A stretch of 64,000 bases of DNA from NCBI GenBank assembly GCA_000004695.1, contig CM000152.2, positions 576,001 through 640,000 on the forward strand. The letters run 5' to 3'. Shown in pieces: positions 32,653 through 61,763 of the stretch. Positions within the stretch are counted from its first letter, which is position 1. Each line of letters opens with the position of its first letter. The stretch comes from Dictyostelium discoideum. Taxonomy: Eukaryota. Position numbers and translations under genes: made by a program. The notes beneath the pieces were generated by a model. It was not told the DNA's origin, ran no database searches, and was given only the letters and a program-made list of their open reading frames with translations.

Positions 32653-33121
32653 TTAGATTTTGGTACATTTTTCATAGAAACATGAATCTTTGACTTCAGA
32701 GGCATCGGTACCTTGGATTTCAACTTGGATACCAACACAGGCTTTACGTAAAGAGTCTTTTGATGAGGTGGCCATCATTTTCTTTTTAATGTTGGCGGTA
32801 TCTGGGCACCAGGCAACAAAACAGATTTTGCTCTTTTGGGCACCTTCTTCTTTGTATTGATAGTCGAGGACAACGTATCTACATTCGTTTTCTGGGAGAC
32901 ATTTGGTGAATTCATCGAATGAACAACCAGCTGGTAAGGTGGAGTCAACAATGATTTCTTTTGAATCGTCAGAGATTCTGTAGATGATACCACCATATTT
33001 ACGACCTAACTTTAAATCGTTGAAGGTTGAAACGCAGTTTGGAGCTAAAGCAATACCTGAAGACTATAAATAGTTTTTTTTAAAAATATAATAATAAAAA
33101 AAAAATTTATTATTAATATTA

Positions 33122-33550: not shown

Positions 33551-34479
33551 TTAAAAAAAATTAAAATTTTTTTTTTTTTTTGGCTCACCCATATCGAGTT
33601 TGTGTGCATTTTTATCATAATAAACCCACTTTTTTTTTTTTCGCCATTTTTTTTTTTTTTAAATTTTTATTTTTTTTTATTTTTTATTTTTTTTTTTTGT
33701 GGTTCTGTTGTGTATTTAAAAAATAAAAAAAGTAAAAACAACCAAATTTTAAAAAATGAGTTTGAGTTTGGTTTTGTTTAATTTGGGTTTTGGTTAAATA
33801 TGGGTGTAATTTTTCCAAATCTTCGATAATGAGATTAACCATTCAATTGTTTAGATTTCTAATTTTTTTACATTAAAATTATAATAATTTTATATTTTTT
33901 TTCGTTTTTTTAAATTTTTTAATTTTTTTTTTATTTTAATTATTTAAATATTAAAAGAAAATATAAATAAATAGATAGATAGATAATTTTCATTGAATTT
34001 TGTAGTAATTTAAAAAATTACAATAAAAAAAAAAAAAAGAAACGGGAAATTGTGAATATTATTATTATTATTAATATTATTCTTTTATAATAATATTTTA
34101 AATTTAATTTTTAATTGTTTTAAAGATAATAAATAATAATATTATAAATTAAATTATTTTAAAATATTTCGTATTTTTAAAATATAATAAAGAAATTAAA
34201 AAAACAAAAAAATAGGTAATAATAAAAAAATATATTTTTTTTTTTTTTTTTATTAATTTTTTTTTTTTATTTTATTTTTTTTTCTAATCGTAACAATTTA
34301 AAGTGTGACAAAAGAAAGAGATTTAAACTGAAATTTTATCAATCTTAAAAAATTAAAATCACACACACACACACATATATATCAAACATTTAGATATATG
34401 AATATATTTTTTTTTTAATAATAATAATGTTTATTTAAGAAATTTTAAAATAATTATTTTTATAAATATTATAAAGTTA

Positions 34480-35449
34480 TTATTTTAATAAAATTTTATC
34501 AACAATTTTTTCATAAGCAATTACATTTGGATCATTTGATCTTTGTTCAATGAATGGTGAATTAATATCAACATATCTTGAACATTGTAATGACCATAAA
34601 TAATTACCACCCAATATTAATTTCATTGATCTTGTTAATAATTTTAAATCATCTCTTTGTTCAATTGGACATTCTAAAAGTAAAATTCTTTCATCTTCAC
34701 AAATTTGATTCATAATTTCATCATTAAATTTTAAAATTACTTTATAAACATTATCAAATGAACCAACTTGATTTTGTAAAAAATGTAAAGGGTTAGTTAA
34801 ATGATTATTATTTCTAATTTCTTTTGCATAGGAAGCACAATCATTCATTGTAGCCATTTGGTATCCACCATTAGTTGCAAATCTATCAAATCTTGGATTA
34901 ATCCAAATTTTTGGATCAATCTTTGAATTTGGATATAAAAGCATTGCAACTGAAAGTGAAACATATGTACCAGAATTAGTTCTTTTAAAAAAATTATAAC
35001 TATCATAATTATTTAAATTCTTTTTTTTTTTTTATTTATATTAATATTATTTAAAAATTAAAAATCAAATAAGTTTAAAAAAAAAAAAGAAAAAGAAAGA
35101 ATTAAAAATACATTACATCAGCTCTATTAAATGGATTAATTGAATTAATCCAATCAATAATAAATTTTAAAAATTGATTAAAGAATTCAATTTTTTCACC
35201 AACAAATTGTTTGGTTGTTTCTCTAAAATATAAAACATATTTTTCAATGTTTGAAATATTATTAGAATCATAAAAATTTCCATCCATAAAAATATGTTCC
35301 AATTTTTTAATTAATTCTCTAGAGTCATCTGGATTTGTTAATTTACTCTCTAAAAAATCATCAACTACAAAACAAACTGTAAGATATCTTGATGCAACCA
35401 AAAGTTGTTCATAGTTACATAAAGGATATAAATAAATTGTACTGGAAAC

Positions 35450-35509
<60 letters not shown>

Positions 35510-35752
35510 TAATTATAATTTTAAAAAATAAATAAATAAAATAATAATAATAATAATAGTAATATTAATATTAATAATAATAATATAGTTTTAAATTTAT
35601 TTACTTGTTCCATAATAATATTCAAGTGTTTTTTTATTTTCTTCAAATAATTTAAAATCAACAACTTCTTTATAACAAGTGTATATACACTTATCATTTG
35701 CAGGTGGTTCAATCCAATCTTCTGGGAATTTGAAATCATGAAGAGAATACAT
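34480..35752 (-). CDS. Microbial-type terpene synthase (class I, DDxxD/E + NSE/DTE motifs), paralog A
   Basis: Three exons: 35605..35752, 35117..35448 and 34480..35019. Introns are GTAAAT...TTTAG (156 nt) and GTAATG...AAAG (97 nt). The Asp-rich motif is ...LVASRYLTVCFVVDDFLESKL and the NSE/DTE motif is ...ATMNDCASYAKEIR. The gene is co-linear with paralog B in exon sizes (148, 332 and 540 nt). Confidence 0.75.
35457..35502. repeat. A46 homopolymer within intron 1 of terpene synthase A
   Basis: 46 consecutive A, counted directly. Confidence 0.95.
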
Positions 35753-35821
35753 TTTTTATTTATTTATATTATAGAATGGGAAATATTTTTTGAAGTTTTG
35801 TTTATTAAATATGAAAATTAT

Positions 35822-35858
<37 letters not shown>

Positions 35859-36466
35859 TAATAAAAGAAGTAAAATAAAAAATAATAATAATAATAATAA
35901 TAATTAAAATAATAATAATAAAATAATAATAATACAATAAAATCAAATAAAAGTAAAAAAGGTTTTAATGATAAATGTATATACAAAAGATTGCAGATAA
36001 ACCACTTTAAAAACATTTGGTCCAGTTTAGACTTTTAAAATTTTTTATTAATTTAAATTAAATATAAGGTCGACCTTTTTTTATTTTATTTTAAATTTAT
36101 TTTTTGTTTATTTTTTTCATTTTTGTAACACCCCATTTATAGTTTTTTATAATTAATTAACCTTTAAAAATAAAATACAATATTAAATGATAATAAATTA
36201 TTGAAGAATAATAATAATAATAATTTTTTTTCTTGTTGGAGTTATTTTATTGGATTTTATCCATATATATTATTTTAAACTTTTCAATAATTATTCATTA
36301 ATAATAAATACTAATTCTCTGCGCTGTAAATTTTTTAAAAAAAAAAGGATTATGACAACACTTTTATATTTTTTTATTTTTTTTTTTTATTTTTTTTATT
36401 ATTTTTTTTAATCTCAAAATAAAAATTAAAAATTATTTTTTTTATCTAAAAATAAAATATAAATTT

Positions 36467-37676
36467 TTATAATTTAATAATTTTATCAACAATATTTTCA
36501 TAAGCAATTACATCAGGATTAATTGATCTTTGTTCAATAAATGGTGAATCAATATCATTAAATCTAGTACATTTCAATGACCAAGAATAATTACCACCCA
36601 ATATTAATTTCATTGATCTTGTTAAATATTTTAAATCATCTTTCTGATCATCTGGACACTCTTTTAAAAGTAATTCTTCATCTTTACAAATTTCATTAAC
36701 AATTTTGTTATTAAAATTTAAAATTAATTTATAAACTTGATCAAATGAACCAATTTCTTTTTGTAAAAAATATAATGGATTTGTTAAATGACAATTACTT
36801 CTAACTTCTTTTGCATAAGATGCACAATCATTAAATGCTGACATTTGATACGCACCATTACAAACAAATCTTTCAAATCTTGGATTCATCCAAATATTAG
36901 TATCAACTTTTGTATTTGGATTTAAAAGCATAGCCATTGAAAGAGTTACATATGTTCCAGAATTAACCTTTTTAAAAAAATTATAACTATCATAATTATT
37001 TAAATTCTTTATTTTTAATATAAAAAAAATAATGTTAATAATAATAAGTAATAATAAATAAGAATAAAAATAATAATAATAAAAATTTTATAAATTTATA
37101 ATTACAATTGCCTTATTAAATGGATTAATTGAATTTATCCATTCAACAAAAAATTTAATAAATTGATTAAAAATGTTAATTTTATCACCAACAAATTGTC
37201 TTGCTTTACCTCTAAAAAACATTGTATATTTTTCAATATTTGAAATATTAGATTGGTCAAGATATTCACCATCAATTAAAATATTTTCAATCTTTTTTGA
37301 CATTAAATTTGAAGTTTCTGAATCAACTAAATTACTTTCCAAAAAGTCATCAATAAGATATCCAACTGTAAGAAATCTACATGCAATTACAAGTTGTTCA
37401 TAATTACATAATGGATAGAAGTTTATGGTACTTGAAACTATTGTAAAATAAATAAAATATTAATTTATATATATAAAATTTATATATCAATTAAATATTA
37501 AATTTATTTTAAAAAAATAAATAATTACGTGTTCCATAATAATATTGAAAAGTTTGTTTATTTTCGTCTAATAATTTATAATTGATAACTTCTTTATAAC
37601 AATCATAAATACATTTATCATCTGCTGTTGGTTCAATCCAATCGCTTGGGTATTTAAAATCATAAATTGAATACAT
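36467..37676 (-). CDS. Microbial-type terpene synthase, paralog B (tandem duplicate of paralog A)
   Basis: Exons 37529..37676, 37106..37437 and 36467..37006, the same sizes and phases as paralog A. Product: MYSIYDFKYPSDWIEPTADDKCIYDCYKEVINYKLLDENKQTFQYYYGT|LSSTINFYPLCNYEQLVIACRFLTVGYLIDDFLESNLVDSE...NKAI|NLNNYDSYNFFKKVNSGTYVTLSMAMLLNPNTK...SAFNDCASYAKEVR.... It is about 60-65% identical to A at protein level. The junction-flanking nucleotides are conserved. Confidence 0.75.
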
Positions 37677-38553
37677 TCCTAATAAAATATTTTATTTTCC
37701 ATTAATTATTATAAATTATATAATTCTTTTTTTTTTTTTTTTTGTATAAACAATCCCTATAAAAATAATAGGAAAAAAAAATTAGATATTGAAAGTTCAC
37801 CATGTATATAAATAGTTTTTTTTTAAAAAAAAAATTATTTATTTTTAAAATTATTAATAATTTTTTAATTACAATATTGGAGGAAAATTTGATTGGATTT
37901 TAAAATTATTTTTTAATATTCTCAAAATTAATGTTGAAAAGTAGTTGGAGAAACTATGGATGGTTGAAAGCCTATGATAATTCTTTTTTTTTTTTGATAA
38001 AAAATAAAAATTGGTTTGCTAATTTTTTATTTTTTTATCTTTTTTTTTATTTTTTTTTTTTTATTTTTTGCATATAAAATTATAAAATAAATATTAATTT
38101 AAAAAATATTAATTAAAAATTTTTAATGCAAATGAACTATTTAAAAATGAAAAGAAAAAATAATTACCTTTTTATATGATTATTTGGTTATCAAGTAAAA
38201 ATTTAAATATTAAAAGATTTTTTTTTTTTTTTTTTATTAATAGATAGAAGGTGGGAAAAAATAAAGAAAAAAAAAACTTAACCTATTAAGAATCTGTCTT
38301 AATTTTAATTATAAAACCTTTTTTATAATTTTAATTAAAAAATAAATAAATGGGAATTAATTTTATCCCGAAAAAAAAAAAAAAAAAATATTATTATTAC
38401 CAGATTCTTTAGATCTTTTTTTTTATTAATTATTTACTTGGAAAAAAAAAGAGTTGTAATTCCTTTTAAAATTACCTATTGTTATTTTATTTTTATTTTT
38501 ATTTTTATTTTTATTTACAAGAATATTTATTTTATATATATATATATATATCT

Positions 38554-39842
38554 CTAATTTGACATTACAATACATAATGAGATTGCATTTACAATTGATT
38601 GAGAAGCATGTAATGGAACGAAATGGTCAGTTGAATTATTAACTATTTGAACACTATTTGAAGAGTAATGAGTCATATCGAATTGAATATCAATCCAATC
38701 AGGTGCACAATCTTGAGAAGCTGTTAAAACCACCAATGATTTATTACCCAAATATTGACTATTTCCAAAGAGATTATTTTGATTTATTAGTATATCATTC
38801 AATTGATTAATTGAATCAAATATAATTGATAATTCATTCTTTGATGCATCAATACTATTAAAAGATTGATAAATTAAATCTGTTGAATACTTTAAAGTAT
38901 CACTTAATTCAATTGTTGATGATCCTAAATACCCACTTGATAATGGAAAAAATGGTGTTAAAATTCTAGTAATACCACTTGGTAAAATATATTTTAAAAC
39001 TTTAAAACTCTTTTTTTATAAAAAAAAAAAAAAAAAATTAGAAAAAATTATAAATAAATATAAAATTATAAATAGATATATAAATTTATATAAATAGTGC
39101 ATACATTAATACCTTGATTAATAAGGTTAATTAAAAAATTATCAGTTAAATCAGTTAAACCCATTGAATCAATTAATAAGACACCATCAACCATTGATGG
39201 GAATTGTGATGCGAATAATTGTGACAATATACCACCATAACTCCAACCAACTAAAATTAAATGATCATTTATACCAATTAATTCTAAATATTGTTTTAAA
39301 TCATTAGCAGCTTCAATAGCATCAACACCTTTATTTCTATTACTTTTATATTTTAAATCACTCCAACCATATCCATATCTATCATATACACAATATTGTT
39401 TAATTTTATTCATTGGACTATTACTACTATTATTTATTTGTTGTTGTTGTAAATTTTCTAAAACGTTACCCCAAATAGTTGAATAAAATGGTGTACCAGC
39501 TTCAAATAGTATTGTTTTTTCAGCATCACCACCACCACCACTACCAGCATATTCAAAACATCTAATATGTAATGATGTTTCATTTATAGTTGGTCTAAAA
39601 CTTTTACCACCAAATTCACCAGAAAAAGTTTTATTTGGGTCTAAAAATATATCTGATTGTTGAATTAATAAAATTATATCTATTATTGATATTAATGATA
39701 ATGTAAAGAATAAATATGAAAAGTATCTCTTTTTATTAGTTTTACCAATAAAATAAAAAAATAATGATACTACCACTAAACAATATAATGTTGATGGTAA
39801 ATATCTATATTCTATTTTAATAAAATCACTTAAACAATTCAT
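38554..39842 (-). CDS. Membrane-anchored alpha/beta-hydrolase (esterase/lipase-like, GxSxG nucleophile elbow)
   Basis: Exons 39105..39842 and 38554..39009, joined across a 95-nt intron with an unusual GTATGC donor and an AAAG acceptor. There are N-terminal TM helices. The nucleophile motif is LILVGWSYGGILSQLFASQF. Exon 2 supplies the likely catalytic Asp and His (..SQDCAPDWIDI.. and ..NNSTDHFVPLHAS..). The track ORFs 39066..39842 and 38554..38802 are the two halves. Confidence 0.55.
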
Positions 39843-40132: not shown

Positions 40133-40614
40133 TTATTTTTGAATTTGATAACGACGTTGTGGTTTATTAACTGAATCAGAAATTAACATTGCATCTCTAA
40201 TTTCAGGAATATCATGAATTCTAATTATATTTGCACCCCACATTGAACCAATACAACAACAAGCTATTGTACCCCATAATCTTCTTTCACTCTTTGGAGA
40301 TGGTGGTGGTAAGGATTTATCCTTTTCAGCATTTGCAATTGTATTTGCGATAAAACCTTTTCTTGAAGGACCAATTAATACTGGAAATCCTAAACCCATC
40401 AATTCTTTACCTCTTTGTAAAATTTCAATTGATTGTTCATAAGTTTTATAAAATCCTAAACCTGGATCCAAAATAATTTGCCATCTAAATAAACCTAACT
40501 TTGTACAAGTTTCAATTCTTTCTTTAAAAAATGAATTTAATGTTGTAATAACACTTTGGACTTGATAAATCAATTTTTTGTTTAATTTTTGATCTATTAT
40601 CGTTATCATTATCA

Positions 40615-40693
<79 letters not shown>

Positions 40694-42179
40694 CTTCACC
40701 ATTTGTATTTATACTACTATTACTATTACTATCATTACTATTATTTAAATATTGTTCATTTTGTTTTTGTTGTAAATATTGAGTTGTTGGTTGTGAATGA
40801 TTTAATATAATTGGTACTCTAAATTCTTTTGCAATTAAAAGTATTTGTGGATCAGTCATACCACCACTAACATCATTGATGATATTACAACCTGCTAATA
40901 TTGCTTCCTTTGCAACTTGATGATGAAGTGTATCAATTGAAAGTGGAATATCATTACCCAATACTTCTCTAATCTTTTTAATGGTTGGCACAACACGATT
41001 GATCTCTTCTTCTATTGAAATTTGTTGAGCACCTGGATAAGTTGATTGACCACCAATATCGATGATATCAGCACCTTGTTCAATTAAGGCAGTAGCTTGT
41101 TGAATTGATTTCTCAAGAGTATTAAATTTACCACCATCAACAAAACTATCTGGAGTAACATTTAAAATACCCATTATAAATGTTTTATCATTCCAATTAT
41201 AATTTAAATTTCCAATTCTAATAACTTTTTCAATTATATTATTACATGTTGTTGTTGCAGTTGGTGGTGGTGGTATGTTATGAATGTTACCACCATTTGG
41301 TAAATTTAATTTCATTCTGTTTGTTGTTATATGTAATGTTGGATGAATGAAATTTGGAGCAATGTCAGAGAGTGGAAGTAATACGAAATCTCTTTCCCAC
41401 ATTAATGGATGTGGTATTTCTAAATCATCGGTTTTGATGATTAAACCATTATAATAGATGATATCGATATCGATTACACGTGGACCATTTCTAAATGTTT
41501 CAACTCTACCCATATCATTTTCAATTTGTTTAATGAATTTCAATAGATCGTGTGGTTTTAAATCTGTACTAACTTTACAAGCACAATTATAGAATGAATC
41601 TTGTTCTCTATAATATTGTGGTGAACTTTCATACATGAATGAAGTTGATTGTATAAAACATTGTTTTTCTAATCTTTTAAAACTATTTAAAATATTTTGA
41701 AATTTATCACCTAGATTTGAACCAAATGCTAAATAAACTATATTATTACCAGCATTACTATTATTACTATTCTTATTATTATTAATTAATTTTGAAGGTA
41801 TTTCAACAAATGAATTTGATTTAAAATAATCTAAAGTTCTTTCAATTTGAACACCTGGCCATTTAGCTAATTTAATTGCACCTGGTTTTTGTACCAAAAC
41901 TTTAACACGTTCAATACCAAATCCTAAACAACAAATTTTTGCCACACCAGTTGCTAATGCTTCTAATGTATAATGATGTGATGATTCTGAATAGGAACAA
42001 ATTGATTTCGATAAGGAACTATAAGAAACTGTATCAATTACATTATCTGATGATCCACATTTTGATAAATCTTTATATGCTGTAACTGAAATTATAATAT
42101 TTTGTTTAATTATTCTTTCACCTGGATTAACACCAATAACTGCTTGAATTAAAAGATCTTTTATTATAATTTTATCCAT
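40133..42179 (-). CDS. Trifunctional folate-biosynthesis protein: dihydroneopterin aldolase, 6-hydroxymethyl-dihydropterin pyrophosphokinase (HPPK) and dihydropteroate synthase (DHPS), FOL1/Fas-like
   Basis: Track ORFs 40524..42179 and 40133..40702 are the two parts, in different frames. The N-terminus MDKIIIKDLLIQAVIGVNPGER... is the aldolase. The HPPK segment is ...IVYLAFGSNLGD...PRVIDIDIIYYNGLIIKTDDLEIPHPLMWERDFVLLPLSDI. The DHPS segment is ...IMGILNVTPDSFVDGG...DIIDIGGQST...NDVSGG...VPIILNHSQ...//...ILDPGLGFYKT...GFPVLIGPSRKGFI...GANIIRIHDIPE. The two frames can be joined either by a 106-nt (AAT)n intron 40594..40699 with a GTGAAG donor and AATAG acceptor (exons 40700..42179 and 40133..40593), or by assuming a 1-nt indel. 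See findings. Confidence 0.75.
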
Positions 42180-56970: not shown

Positions 56971-59900
56971 TTAATTTTTAAGGAAATAAATTTCAGCATC
57001 ATTATCTTTAACAATTGAGACAATTTCAGTTGCAAATGAATTTGATGGTGAAGTAGTTTCAGAGAATTGAAGATTGAATAAAATGGTTTCTTTAATGTAA
57101 TCGTTATTATTTTCAATGGCAGTTTTTAATTCAGCTTCTTTAGTATGATAAAACATTGATACTGGATCATCAAAGGTGAGACCACTCTTCTTTCTAAGTC
57201 TTTGAACACGATTGATTAATTCACGAGCCAAACCTTTTTCATAGAGTGCACTATCGACAGTAAGATCTAAAACTGTTAAGATTTCTTCATTACCTGAAGG
57301 TTCAGAGTTTGTAGTTTCACCATTATATTTACGGATGATTTTAAGATCTTCAGAGGTGAGTTCATGACCAAGAATATCGATGGTTTGAGTTTTTTGGAAT
57401 TCACGAAGTTGTTCATTGGTGAGTTTAGAGATTAATGGTGAGATCTTCTTAAAGTCATTCTTTAAACGGGCACCTAAACGTTTGTTATCGGCTTCAGCAG
57501 TGACAACAACGAATGAACCTTCATCACTTGTGAGAACGATATTTTGGATATTTAATTCCTCGAGGATATAAGATTTGAGTGATTCTAAATCGGCGAGATA
57601 TTGTTGATTCTCAGTGATGACCATAAATTCTTTGAGTGGGAATTTAATTGGTTTGGTACGACGATCTCTAGCGGCACGACCCAATTCGATGACAACTTGC
57701 ATACGTGAAATGGCTTCTTCAATTCTAGTGTTGAAAGCTTCTTGAATTGGTTCAGGGAACATAACATAGTGAACTGAATCCATTTGTTTCTCCTTTGGTA
57801 ATGCTTTCTTAAGATTTTGGTACATGTACTCTGTAAAGAATGGAGTGAATGGACCCATAGCAATACAAATGGTCATTAAAACCTCATAGAGGATATTGAG
57901 AGCGGCAAGACAATCGGCATCACCATTTGAACCCTTTAAACGCTTACGATTTAAACGAACGAACCAATTGGTAAGATCTTCAATGAAACGAACCAATTTT
58001 GGTACGACAGTGTATAAACGATAGGCGGCCATTTCTGCACGTACAAATGCAATGAGTGATTGGCAAGAGGCAAGAATCCATTTGTCCATAACATTTTCAG
58101 AGGCAAGAGCAACCTTAATATCTGGTTGGAAAGTGGTGTTGGTAGCTTTTTCAAAACGAAGACAATTTTGAACAAAGAAACGATAGGCGTTAAACCATGG
58201 TAAGAAAACATCTTTGATCATATCTTGAACACCTTTCTCTTGGAATTTCAAAGTTTCAGCTCTAACAACTGGTGAATTGATAAGGTAGAGACGAAGAGAA
58301 TCAGCACCAACCTTTGATACGACTTCCATTGGATCTGGATAATTCTTTAATCTCTTTGACATTTTCTTACCATCAGCAGCTAAAACCAAACCATTAACAA
58401 TGAGATTTTGGAAAGGTGGTTTATCAAAGAGAGCAGTTGATAAAACCAATAGTGTATAGAACCAACCTCTAGTTTGATCAAGACCTTCGGCGATAAAGTG
58501 AGCTGGGAAGATCTTTTCAAATTTATCCTTATTTTCAAATGGATAATGTTGTTGAGCGTATGGCATAGAACCAGATTCAAACCAACAATCGAAAACATCT
58601 TCAATACGACGGAGTGTACCTTTACCTTTTTGTGATGGAATTGTAATATGATCGATTGATTCACGATGAAGATCAGTTACACGAACACCAGAGAGACGTT
58701 CTAATTCGTCGATACTGCCAATGACAACAACTTCTTCACCATCTTCACTAATCCATAATGGGATTGGGGTACCCCAATAACGATTTCTACTGACAGCCCA
58801 ATCTGTTGCATTCTTTAACCAATTTGCAAATCTTTTCTCTTTGACAAAATCTGGTACCCAATAGGTTTTATCATTGTTTGCTAATAATTTATCACGAATT
58901 GATTCGACTCTAACGAACCAACTACCGACTGCTTTGTAGATCAATGGTGTATCTGAACGCCAACAATATGGATAACTATGGACAAGATTTGCACTATTTA
59001 CCATACGACCTTTATTTTTGAGATAAATGCTAATTTGTTTGGTGGTTTCAGCGTCTTTTACCATCATACCAGCGAAATCGGTTACATCACTTGTGAAACA
59101 ACCATTGGCATCGACAGAGTTAAGAATTGGACGTTTGAATTGATCTCTAGAGATGACACCATTGGCAATACAAACATTGAAATCGTCCTCACCATAGGCT
59201 GGTGCAGTATGAACGATACCGGTACCAGAATCATCGGTAACGAAATCACCACCAATAACAACGAAACCACCCATATTGGCATCACTTGCAAAGTATGGGA
59301 ACATTGGTACATACTTTTTACCAATTAAATCTGTGCCTTTCATTGTTTCTAAAACTGTATATTCCTTATCTGATTTGTAGAGGATTGAAGTACGATTTTT
59401 ACCAAGGATAAAGATTTGATTACGTTTGATATCATTGATCTTTATGTATTCCATCTTTGGATTCACAGTCAATGCTAAATTGGATGGAAGGGTCCATGGG
59501 GTGGTGGTCCATGCCAAGATTGAAACTTTCTCATCATCAAGAGTTTGGAATGAAACAACACATGCTGGATCACTTACATCCTTGTAGTTTGATGATGCTT
59601 CAAAGTTTGATAATGGTGTTGTGCAGCCAATTGAGTATGGCATAACTTTGAAACCTTGGTACACCAAATCCTTCTTAAAGAGTTCTTGGAAAACCCACCA
59701 AACACTCTCCATAAATGGTGTGTCCATAGTTTTGTAATTGTTTTTCATATCGATCCAACGACCCATACGATTGACTACGATCTCCCACTCATGTGAATAT
59801 TTCATAACGATTGAACGACAATGTTGATTATATGTTGGAATACCCATCTTTAATACATCCTCCTTGGTTCTAACGCCATGAAGTTTATCAATTTCAAACT

Positions 59901-60359
59901 CAATTGGTAAACCATGACAATCCCATCCAAAACGTCTTTCAACATGATGTCCAGTTTGATGAGCATAACGTGTGATTGTATCTTTAATTGTACCTGCTAA
60001 AATATGTCCATAATGTGGTAAACCTGTTGCAAATGGTGGTCCATCATAAAATGAATACTCTGGTTTACCTTCACTCATTTTTACTGAGGTTTCAAATGCT
60101 TTAATATCATCCCAATATTTTAAAATTTTTGATTCTTCTCCTGCAAAATCAATTTTTTGTGGAACTAAAATTTATTTAAAAAAAAAAAATTATTAATATG
60201 AATTTCTATTTTTATATTTTTTTTTTTTATTATTTTTTTTTTTTTTAATTTTTTTTTTTTTTTTTTTTTTAATAAGGGGGTATTTAAATTCAGATTTTAG
60301 AAAAAAAAAAAAAAAAGAAAAAAATCTTTTAGGATATTTTTTTTCTTACCTTCTTCCAT
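56971..60359 (-). CDS. ileS: Isoleucyl-tRNA synthetase, cytoplasmic (class I aaRS)
   Basis: Exons 60350..60359 (ATGGAAGAAG, donor GTAAGA, phase 1) and 56971..60164 (acceptor TTTTAG). The N-terminus MEE|[89 protein letters not shown] is co-linear with human IARS1 (..[51 protein letters not shown]). The HIGH-type motif and the KMSKR motif (GKKMSKRLKNYPDP) are present, followed by the anticodon-binding domain. Confidence 0.9.
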
Positions 60360-60656
60360 TTTATATAATTATATTTATTGTTTCTTAACAACAATTAAAC
60401 GTTTTTTTTAACGATTGTTGCTTTTTAAGAAAATTAAAATTGTAAAAAAAAAAAAAAAAAATTAAAAATAAAAAAAAATAAAAAAAAAAATGAAAAAAAA
60501 AAAAAAATGAAAAAATAAAAAAAAAAATAAAAAAAAAAAATGAAAATTTTATGAAATTCATTTCTTATACTTTTAACAAAAAGAAATAATAGAGAAAAAG
60601 GGAAAAACTTTTTTTTAATAAAAAAATAAAATAAAAATAAAAATTTAATCCCTGTT

Positions 60657-61763
60657 ATGATTAAAAGCGTTAAGTTATTAAAAACCATCTCAAAAACAAG
60701 TTTTATTTGTAATAATAATAAATTTATAGGAAATTATAATAATAATAATTTTATAAGAAAAATGAGTACCACAAATACAAATACTGCAAATAGTAGTAAT
60801 AATAATAATAATAATAATAATAATCAAAAACAAAAACAACAACAAAAACCAAAAAATAATGATAAAGGATGTTGTGATCCAAGTGTTAATCAACCAAAAT
60901 CTAAACAAAAACCAATTGATAATAGTAAAGCAAAATTGAATACACCAAAAGTTGTTGATATGGCGGAGGATGCAAAATATGTTGATTCACATGTACATGT
61001 TGACCAACTTTTAATAAGATTAAATAAATCATTAACAGATTTCCCACAATTTAAACAAGACAACTTTCCAAAACAATTTGAAAAATTAATTCAAGTTTGT
61101 TGTGATCCAGTATCGATAGAATATGCAGATTTCTTAATTGAAAACAATGAGTGTATCTATGGTGCCTATGGCGTCCACCCTCACAATGCCAAGGAATATA
61201 ATGACCAAATTGAGCAAAAACTAATAGACAGGATGAAATCAAATCCAAAAGTTGTGGCATGGGGCGAGATGGGGTTAGACTATTTTTACAATAAATCTTC
61301 AAATGACGAGCAAATCAATGCCTTCTCACGTCAATTGAAGCAGGCTGTCAAGTTGGGTAAACCATTGGTAATCCATAGTCGTGAGGCTGAGGAGGACACA
61401 TTGCGTCTCTTGAAGGAGTTGGTACCTGTTGATTATAAAATTCATATCCATTGTTTCACGTCCAATAGTGATTTCGCAAAACAATTACTTGACCATTTCC
61501 CAAATCTTTGTATTGGGTTCACTGGTTGCATCACTTTTAGAAACTCTCAATCAATCAGAGATAGCGTTGAAGCCGTGCCAATCGAACGTATCCTTTTGGA
61601 AACTGATGGTCCATATATGACACCTGAACCATTCCGTGGTCAAATTGCTCATTCTGGGCACATTCCAATGGTTGCAAATGCAATCTCTCAAATTAAAAAT
61701 ATACCCCTAGATCAAGTTTTAAAACAATGTAGAGAAAATACTACTAAAATTTATGGAATTTAA
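60657..61763 (+). CDS. TatD-family metal-dependent deoxyribonuclease (TATDN-like) with an N-terminal extension, possibly organellar
   Basis: Single 368-aa ORF with TatD motifs: DSHVHVD, GEMGLDYFY, PLVIHSREAEEDTL, HIHCFTS and LLETDGPYMTPEPFRG. Confidence 0.85.
   Translation: MIKSVKLLKTISKTSFICNNNKFIGNYNNNNFIRKMSTTNTNTANSSNNNNNNNNNQKQKQQQKPKNNDKGCCDPSVNQPKSKQKPIDNSKAKLNTPKVVDMAEDAKYVDSHVHVDQLLIRLNKSLTDFPQFKQDNFPKQFEKLIQVCCDPVSIEYADFLIENNECIYGAYGVHPHNAKEYNDQIEQKLIDRMKSNPKVVAWGEMGLDYFYNKSSNDEQINAFSRQLKQAVKLGKPLVIHSREAEEDTLRLLKELVPVDYKIHIHCFTSNSDFAKQLLDHFPNLCIGFTGCITFRNSQSIRDSVEAVPIERILLETDGPYMTPEPFRGQIAHSGHIPMVANAISQIKNIPLDQVLKQCRENTTKIYGI

Follow-up and report, generated by a model that had tools for sequence, protein, structure and literature searches.

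Do two neighbouring terpene synthase (TPS) genes and the membrane hydrolase beside them make up a small biosynthetic cluster in Dictyostelium discoideum, and how long ago did the pair arise by duplication? We addressed this question for a 64,000-nucleotide stretch of AX4 chromosome 3 (contig CM000152.2, positions 576,001 to 640,000; hereafter the window), in which an original prediction, made from the letters of the sequence, had placed a recently duplicated pair of microbial-type terpene synthase genes next to an alpha/beta-hydrolase that might modify their product. Taken together, the analyses make it very probable that the genes are the tandem class I synthases DdTPS9 and DdTPS7, that the pair is older than the split of D. 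discoideum, D. citrinum and D. dimigraforme, and that the hydrolase is a mere neighbour.

The rebuilt gene models agree with the predicted architecture of two co-oriented, three-exon paralogs about 1.9 kb apart. Both have exons of 148, 332 and 540 nt, GT..AG introns of equal phase, intact splice sites and an uninterrupted frame in a coding sequence (CDS) of 1020 nt, and the distance from ATG to ATG is 1,924 bp, of which 714 bp separate the TPS7 stop from the TPS9 ATG. An exact-sequence look-up returned AX4 entries that match all three proteins of the locus residue for residue (for the hydrolase, a 397-aa splice variant), and the comparison with the DdTPS1-9 set that had been proposed for the synthases ended in exact identity with DdTPS9 and DdTPS7, named Terpene synthase 9 (Q54YE2) and Terpene synthase 7 (Q54YE1) in UniProt. 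Over 337 residues, aligned without a gap, identity between the two proteins is 67% and similarity 85%. Direct-repeat analysis restricted the nucleotide likeness of the genes to the exons (73-82% identity), the intergenic matches being low-complexity A/T runs, and no further synthase remnant was found in the window by tblastn (E up to 10).

The two motifs that mark membership of the family, DDxx(D/E) and (N,D)Dxx(S,T)xxxE, are both present in DdTPS7 and DdTPS9, as DDFLE and NDCASYAKE; they survive splicing as anticipated, and we verified them codon by codon (Table 1). Across a 31-member family alignment D79, N219, D220, S223 and E227 are invariant, D80 is kept in at least 90% of the sequences, and the C-terminal residues R308 and Y309 are nearly invariant. 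DdTPS9 keeps R308-Y309 and has R173 beside K172; DdTPS7 has R308-F309. The RY pair and the upstream Arg sensor are auxiliary diphosphate-binding residues and do not define the family. Phe309 occurs in the TPS7 lineage of D. discoideum, D. citrinum and D. dimigraforme, and Tyr is kept in one extra TPS7-like copy of D. cf. discoideum.

Profile and structure comparisons point the same way. DdTPS9 matches Pfam PF19086 with 32.7 bits (cut-off 23.7), and all 31 members of the family alignment match it at E <=0.001. Among 1.8 billion representative proteins 37 relatives were recovered at E <=0.001; the nearest of these outside the TPS7/9 clade are about 30% identical, and every one of the nine looked up is a dictyostelid terpene synthase (DdTPS1, DdTPS3, DpTPS2, DpTPS10 and TlTPS1 amongst them). 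A search of the PDB with the single DdTPS9 sequence gave marginal matches only (E >=0.08), whilst the 31-sequence profile matched solved sesquiterpene cyclases of fungi and bacteria over almost the full length at 1e-36 to 7e-45, amongst them AcCop4 (7e-45), T-muurolol synthase and pentalenene synthase. The AlphaFold model of DdTPS9, built from the same 31-sequence alignment, has a predicted local distance difference test score (pLDDT) of 91.9 and a predicted template modelling score (pTM) of 0.91; its top Foldseek matches are all class I cyclases at template modelling (TM) scores of 0.70-0.79, and it superposes on Cop4, linalool synthase, pentalenene synthase, T-muurolol synthase and others. 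For DdTPS7 a shallow alignment of eight close relatives gave a model with a pLDDT of 43, and we infer its all-helical alpha-domain fold from the 67% identity to DdTPS9. Motifs, Pfam and profile matches and the DdTPS9 model thus bear out the predicted class: DdTPS7 and DdTPS9 are tandem paralogs and microbial-type, single-alpha-domain class I terpene synthases of the social-amoeba family.

With the fungal and bacterial single-domain cyclases (Antrodia Cop4, Agrocybe linalool synthase, Streptomyces pentalenene synthase, Roseiflexus T-muurolol synthase) the amoeba synthases share the alpha-helical fold (TM 0.7-0.8) as well as the DDxx(D/E) motif, the NSE triad and the C-terminal WSxxxxRY region, yet sequence identity in structure-based alignments is only 11-18%. 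Unlike those cyclases, the amoeba genes contain two introns and encode a first motif with a terminal Glu; RY is changed to RF in TPS7, and both TPS7 and TPS9 carry Lys at a column that holds Arg in at least 90% of relatives.

Table 1. Genes of the locus and metal-binding motifs of the two synthases (positions in the window).
Feature	Position	Strand	Details
DdTPS9 (gene A; DDB_G0278279; TPS9_DICDI; UniProt Q54YE2)	34480..35752	-	exons 35752-35605, 35448-35117, 35019-34480; 339 aa
DdTPS7 (gene B; DDB_G0278647; TPS7_DICDI; UniProt Q54YE1)	36467..37676	-	exons 37676-37529, 37437-37106, 37006-36467; 339 aa
Membrane alpha/beta-hydrolase (DDB_G0278281; UniProt Q54YE0)	38554..39842	-	exons 39842-39105, 39009-38554; 397 aa
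DdTPS9 Asp-rich motif DDFLE (first metal-binding motif), residues 79-83	35348..35362	-	reverse complement GATGATTTTTTAGAG
DdTPS9 NSE triad NDCASYAKE (second metal-binding motif), residues 219-227	34819..34845	-	read from sequence
DdTPS7 Asp-rich motif DDFLE, residues 79-83	37337..37351	-	reverse complement GATGACTTTTTGGAA
DdTPS7 NSE triad NDCASYAKE, residues 219-227	36806..36832	-	reverse complement AATGATTGTGCATCTTATGCAAAAGAA

The age of the pair was read from the corresponding loci of related genomes, where the spliced CDS of each copy was rebuilt and the three-exon structure proved to be kept in all. The D. citrinum locus holds two TPS genes, in the order Fol1, hydrolase, TPS7, TPS9, cofilin; D. 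dimigraforme has three in the same position, D. cf. discoideum (GCA_054859235.1) likewise three, two TPS7-like copies being separated by an insert of about 10 kb, and D. firmibasis a single, TPS9-like gene. Separate orthologs of TPS7 and TPS9 are present in D. citrinum and D. dimigraforme, which places the duplication before the split of D. discoideum, D. citrinum and D. dimigraforme, and it is therefore not recent. The contrary claim of the original prediction also sits badly with the 67% protein identity and with the number of synonymous substitutions per site (dS) between the paralogs, 0.46-1.1, compared with about 0.4-0.5 between orthologs of different species. The TPS7 clade has 100% bootstrap support in a neighbour-joining (NJ) tree rooted with other dictyostelid synthases, and the D. 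firmibasis gene groups with the TPS9 orthologs. The ratio of non-synonymous to synonymous substitutions (dN/dS) is 0.09-0.14 for TPS9 orthologs, 0.15-0.19 for TPS7 orthologs (three species) and 0.2-0.5 between paralogs; both copies are under purifying selection, TPS9 being the conservative and TPS7 the faster-evolving copy. A 2018 survey did not find a D. purpureum ortholog of DdTPS7 or DdTPS9 (PMC6156593), and on the sequences compared the duplication is confined to a subgroup of group 4.

The most probable course of events starts from a single TPS9-like gene between the hydrolase and cofilin-1A, which duplicated before D. discoideum, D. citrinum and D. dimigraforme parted; TPS9 then remained conservative, TPS7 changed faster, and extra copies were added in some genomes. 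A truly recent duplication is exemplified elsewhere, by the two TPS9-like copies of D. dimigraforme (94% identity, dS 0.09). Short intergenic fragments similar to the TPS C-terminus (about residues 260-339) occur in D. citrinum (L002, 9328-9505), D. dimigraforme (L001, 14040-14253) and D. cf. discoideum (L008, 8021-8116) and appear to be remnants of further duplications that have since decayed; no such fragment is present in the AX4 window. The insert of about 10 kb in D. cf. discoideum (L008, 150-10000) contains two paralogous open-reading frames (ORFs) of 165 aa and a low-complexity ORF of EKEKA repeats. Within the D. discoideum pair, exon 3 of both genes opens with the same 37 nt, encoding NLNNYDSYNFFK (34983-35019 and 36970-37006), and over the 3' half the nucleotide identity exceeds that of cross-species paralog comparisons by 3-6 points; together these give a weak hint of either gene conversion or strong constraint. 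As a claim, gene conversion between the paralogs was rejected, the 3'-half excess of 3-6 points being too weak to carry it.

The next gene in the same orientation encodes an alpha/beta-hydrolase, as foreseen, with an Abhydrolase_1 match of 37.2 bits (cut-off 25.8), a GWSYGG nucleophile elbow and, in its N-terminus, two putative hydrophobic membrane segments visible in the sequence. It lies upstream of the synthases on the same strand, with 880 bp between its stop and the TPS7 ATG. Among ten dictyostelid homologs S201 and H375 are invariant and D350, the putative acid of the triad by its position, is kept in at least 90%, whilst the closest solved relatives are generic esterases and depolymerases at E values of 1e-4 or weaker. 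It is a single-copy gene with one clear ortholog per sampled genome (D. purpureum, P. violaceum, A. subglobosum, H. album, C. fasciculata), and the identities run from 52% down to 38%. Precomputed Pfam annotation and tblastn with DdTPS7 and DdTPS9 (E up to 10) detected no TPS gene within 10 kb on either side of the ortholog in D. purpureum, P. violaceum, H. album and C. fasciculata, so the hydrolase predates its association with the synthases. Hydrolase and synthase genes also stand side by side in D. citrinum, D. dimigraforme and D. firmibasis, together with an equally collinear set of housekeeping genes around them (coatomer-type WD40, Fol1, cofilin, EF-hand, Mdm12); in such close relatives the adjacency is background synteny and adds no information of its own. 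In D. purpureum a pair of Ile-tRNA synthetase and TatD genes lies about 3 kb from the hydrolase (L003, 14117-19060), and in the window the same pair is found at 56971-61763, about 17 kb from the hydrolase and on its opposite side, a shift which indicates that a local inversion or rearrangement joined the hydrolase and the TPS ancestor. The hydrolase is an ancient dictyostelid gene, a neighbour of the synthases only in this lineage and most likely without a functional part in the terpenoid pathway.

Developmental expression was taken from the differential-expression lists of the Rosengarten 2015 time course (PMC4403905, supplementary file 7). For development on filters TPS7 is in the list UP_Hr14_gradual and TPS9 in UP_Hr18_rapid and UP_Hr22_gradual; the hydrolase is in none of the filter-development up or down lists, and in one suspension-starvation list only (UP_Hr05_gradual, by column position). 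The hydrolase thus stands in a different developmental class from both synthase genes, moderate evidence in the form of thresholded list memberships, with columns assigned by position, and not of quantitative profiles. The co-regulation of all three genes that a functional cluster had led one to expect did not appear in these lists, an outcome that the original prediction had itself named as an argument against such a cluster.

Class I terpenoid cyclases act by Mg2+-triggered ionisation of a diphosphate, followed by cyclisation of the carbocation in a hydrophobic pocket. By analogy with the family, DDFLE and NDCASYAKE would hold a trinuclear Mg2+ cluster to which the diphosphate of farnesyl diphosphate binds and which sets off its ionisation, and the resulting carbocation would be cyclised in the helical pocket. 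DdTPS9 would in this way make beta-barbatene, plus linalool from geranyl diphosphate (GPP), and DdTPS7 a different sesquiterpene, and the products would be released as volatiles in multicellular development. All nine synthases, DdTPS1-9, were reportedly published and characterised by Chen et al. in PNAS in 2016. Later work lists beta-barbatene as the product of DdTPS9 (Q54YE2) (PMC10088877), and another paper reports that all of DdTPS1-9 are active in vitro, that linalool is an in vitro product of DdTPS9, and that the volatile bouquet of multicellular development contains sesquiterpenes made by DdTPS7 and DdTPS9 (PMC6524965). A full-text literature search found none of the three DDB_G identifiers in main texts, and likewise did not find TPS7 together with Dictyostelium.

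Could the synthases and the hydrolase nevertheless form a functional three-gene cluster, in which the membrane enzyme modifies or releases the terpenoid? The genes are adjacent and co-oriented, the neighbourhood is retained in three relatives, the putative Ser-Asp-His triad of the hydrolase is intact, and TPS-P450 clusters do occur in D. discoideum (PMC6524965). However, the species that keep the adjacency are close relatives with collinear housekeeping flanks, whilst the original prediction's candidate cluster member is conserved across Dictyostelia and has no synthase within 10 kb in the four species examined outside the D. discoideum complex; its expression class is unlike that of either TPS gene, and its solved relatives are generic. 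On chemical grounds, beta-barbatene, a hydrocarbon, would offer a serine hydrolase no bond to cleave. In a published survey of D. discoideum the only TPS genes placed in clusters are TPS8, TPS2 and TPS3, each alongside cytochrome P450s (PMC6524965), and no P450, methyltransferase or prenyltransferase was seen among the 10 of 28 window ORFs of at least 130 aa that were scanned against Pfam; these encode sugar transporters, ArfGAP, a PPR protein, coatomer beta-prime, Ile-tRNA synthetase and TatD. The comparison with the DdTPS8-CYP521A1 cluster is instructive: there, too, a D. discoideum TPS gene stands beside a possible tailoring gene, but the two are arranged head to head, 685 bp apart, are co-expressed with r = 0.994, and their sequential action has been shown biochemically (PMC6524965), whereas beside TPS7 and TPS9 stands a generic hydrolase whose expression class differs from theirs and whose linkage to them does not extend beyond the D. 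discoideum complex. We consider the three-gene cluster very unlikely. There is a similarly slim chance that this ancient membrane serine hydrolase was recruited in the D. discoideum complex to act on a DdTPS7 or DdTPS9 product after its oxygenation or esterification, which, if true, would make the locus a young, lineage-specific terpenoid cluster.

Several points weigh against our preferred reading of DdTPS9 and DdTPS7 as an old pair of class I synthases with the hydrolase as bystander. The PF19086 score of DdTPS7, 20.8 bits, is below the gathering threshold of 23.7, the protein has Phe for the near-invariant Tyr of the C-terminal RY pair, and K172 of both paralogs stands where at least 90% of relatives have Arg. 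Internal support in the rooted NJ tree is low, and the tree would fit a duplication after the D. firmibasis split as well as an older duplication followed by loss in D. firmibasis. The statements on DdTPS7 and DdTPS9 activity rest on later papers citing the 2016 study, and the expression evidence has the list form described above. The features of DdTPS7 just named, along with its faster evolution, are what a decaying or catalytically impaired duplicate might show, with DdTPS9 as the sole working enzyme, yet the DdTPS7 frame is intact, its splice sites are canonical and all metal-binding residues are present; moreover the dN/dS of 0.15-0.19 across the TPS7 orthologs of three species indicates purifying selection, the gene is up-regulated in development, and both activity and an in vivo product are reported (PMC6524965). 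An impaired DdTPS7 is accordingly a still slighter prospect than the cluster. Bacterial or fungal contamination, or a very recent horizontal transfer, might be read from the microbial-type fold and motifs, but each gene has two spliceosomal introns at conserved positions, G+C of the genes (about 17-18%) is like that of the rest of the window (about 20%, as is typical for a dictyostelid), syntenic orthologs stand in four related genomes, and the nearest looked-up relatives are all dictyostelid synthases of about 30% identity. Introns and synteny effectively refute this last explanation, to which we give next to no credence.

The old tandem pair of class I synthases is not new as such: in the literature the synthase genes, their family and their activities have been known since 2016 (PMC6524965, PMC6156593), and the genes in the window are DdTPS7 and DdTPS9 themselves, not look-alikes. 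Beyond confirmation the locus has little significance, and what is added, modestly and incrementally, is the comparative series. The range of one to three copies, the faster divergence of TPS7 and the unlinked hydrolase outside the complex may not have been described before. A TPS copy number of one to three across five genomes, combined with a fast TPS7, could underlie species- or strain-specific volatile signatures, a weaker novelty than recruitment of the hydrolase would be, though a more likely one. A locus that holds one to three synthases, with one conservative and one fast copy, offers a natural series in which to follow the evolution of terpene products after duplication.

The gene order on the minus strand is coatomer beta-prime, Fol1 (a trifunctional folate enzyme), hydrolase, TPS7, TPS9 and cofilin-1A, and a search of the window for tRNA genes returned none. 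About 1.4 kb downstream of DdTPS9, at 32656-33063 (-), is the main exon of cofilin-1A (cofA, DDB_G0277833). The annotations of several other D. discoideum strains fuse TPS9 and cofilin into chimeric models of 461 aa (P0004, P0007, P0010), which is an annotation artefact; cofilins share a 90% cluster with TPS9 because the two were merged in these models. To judge by its D. citrinum ortholog, the Fol1 gene (40133-42179, -) encodes FolB, HPPK and dihydropteroate synthase domains; it also contains a long (AAT)n run at about 40600-40700, which is read as poly-Asn in one ORF and overlaps a second, suggesting an intron or a repeat-rich linker. Intron 1 of DdTPS9 includes a poly(A) run of about 50 nt (35456-35503), and a short (CA)n microsatellite is situated at 34360-34376, about 100 bp downstream of the DdTPS9 stop.

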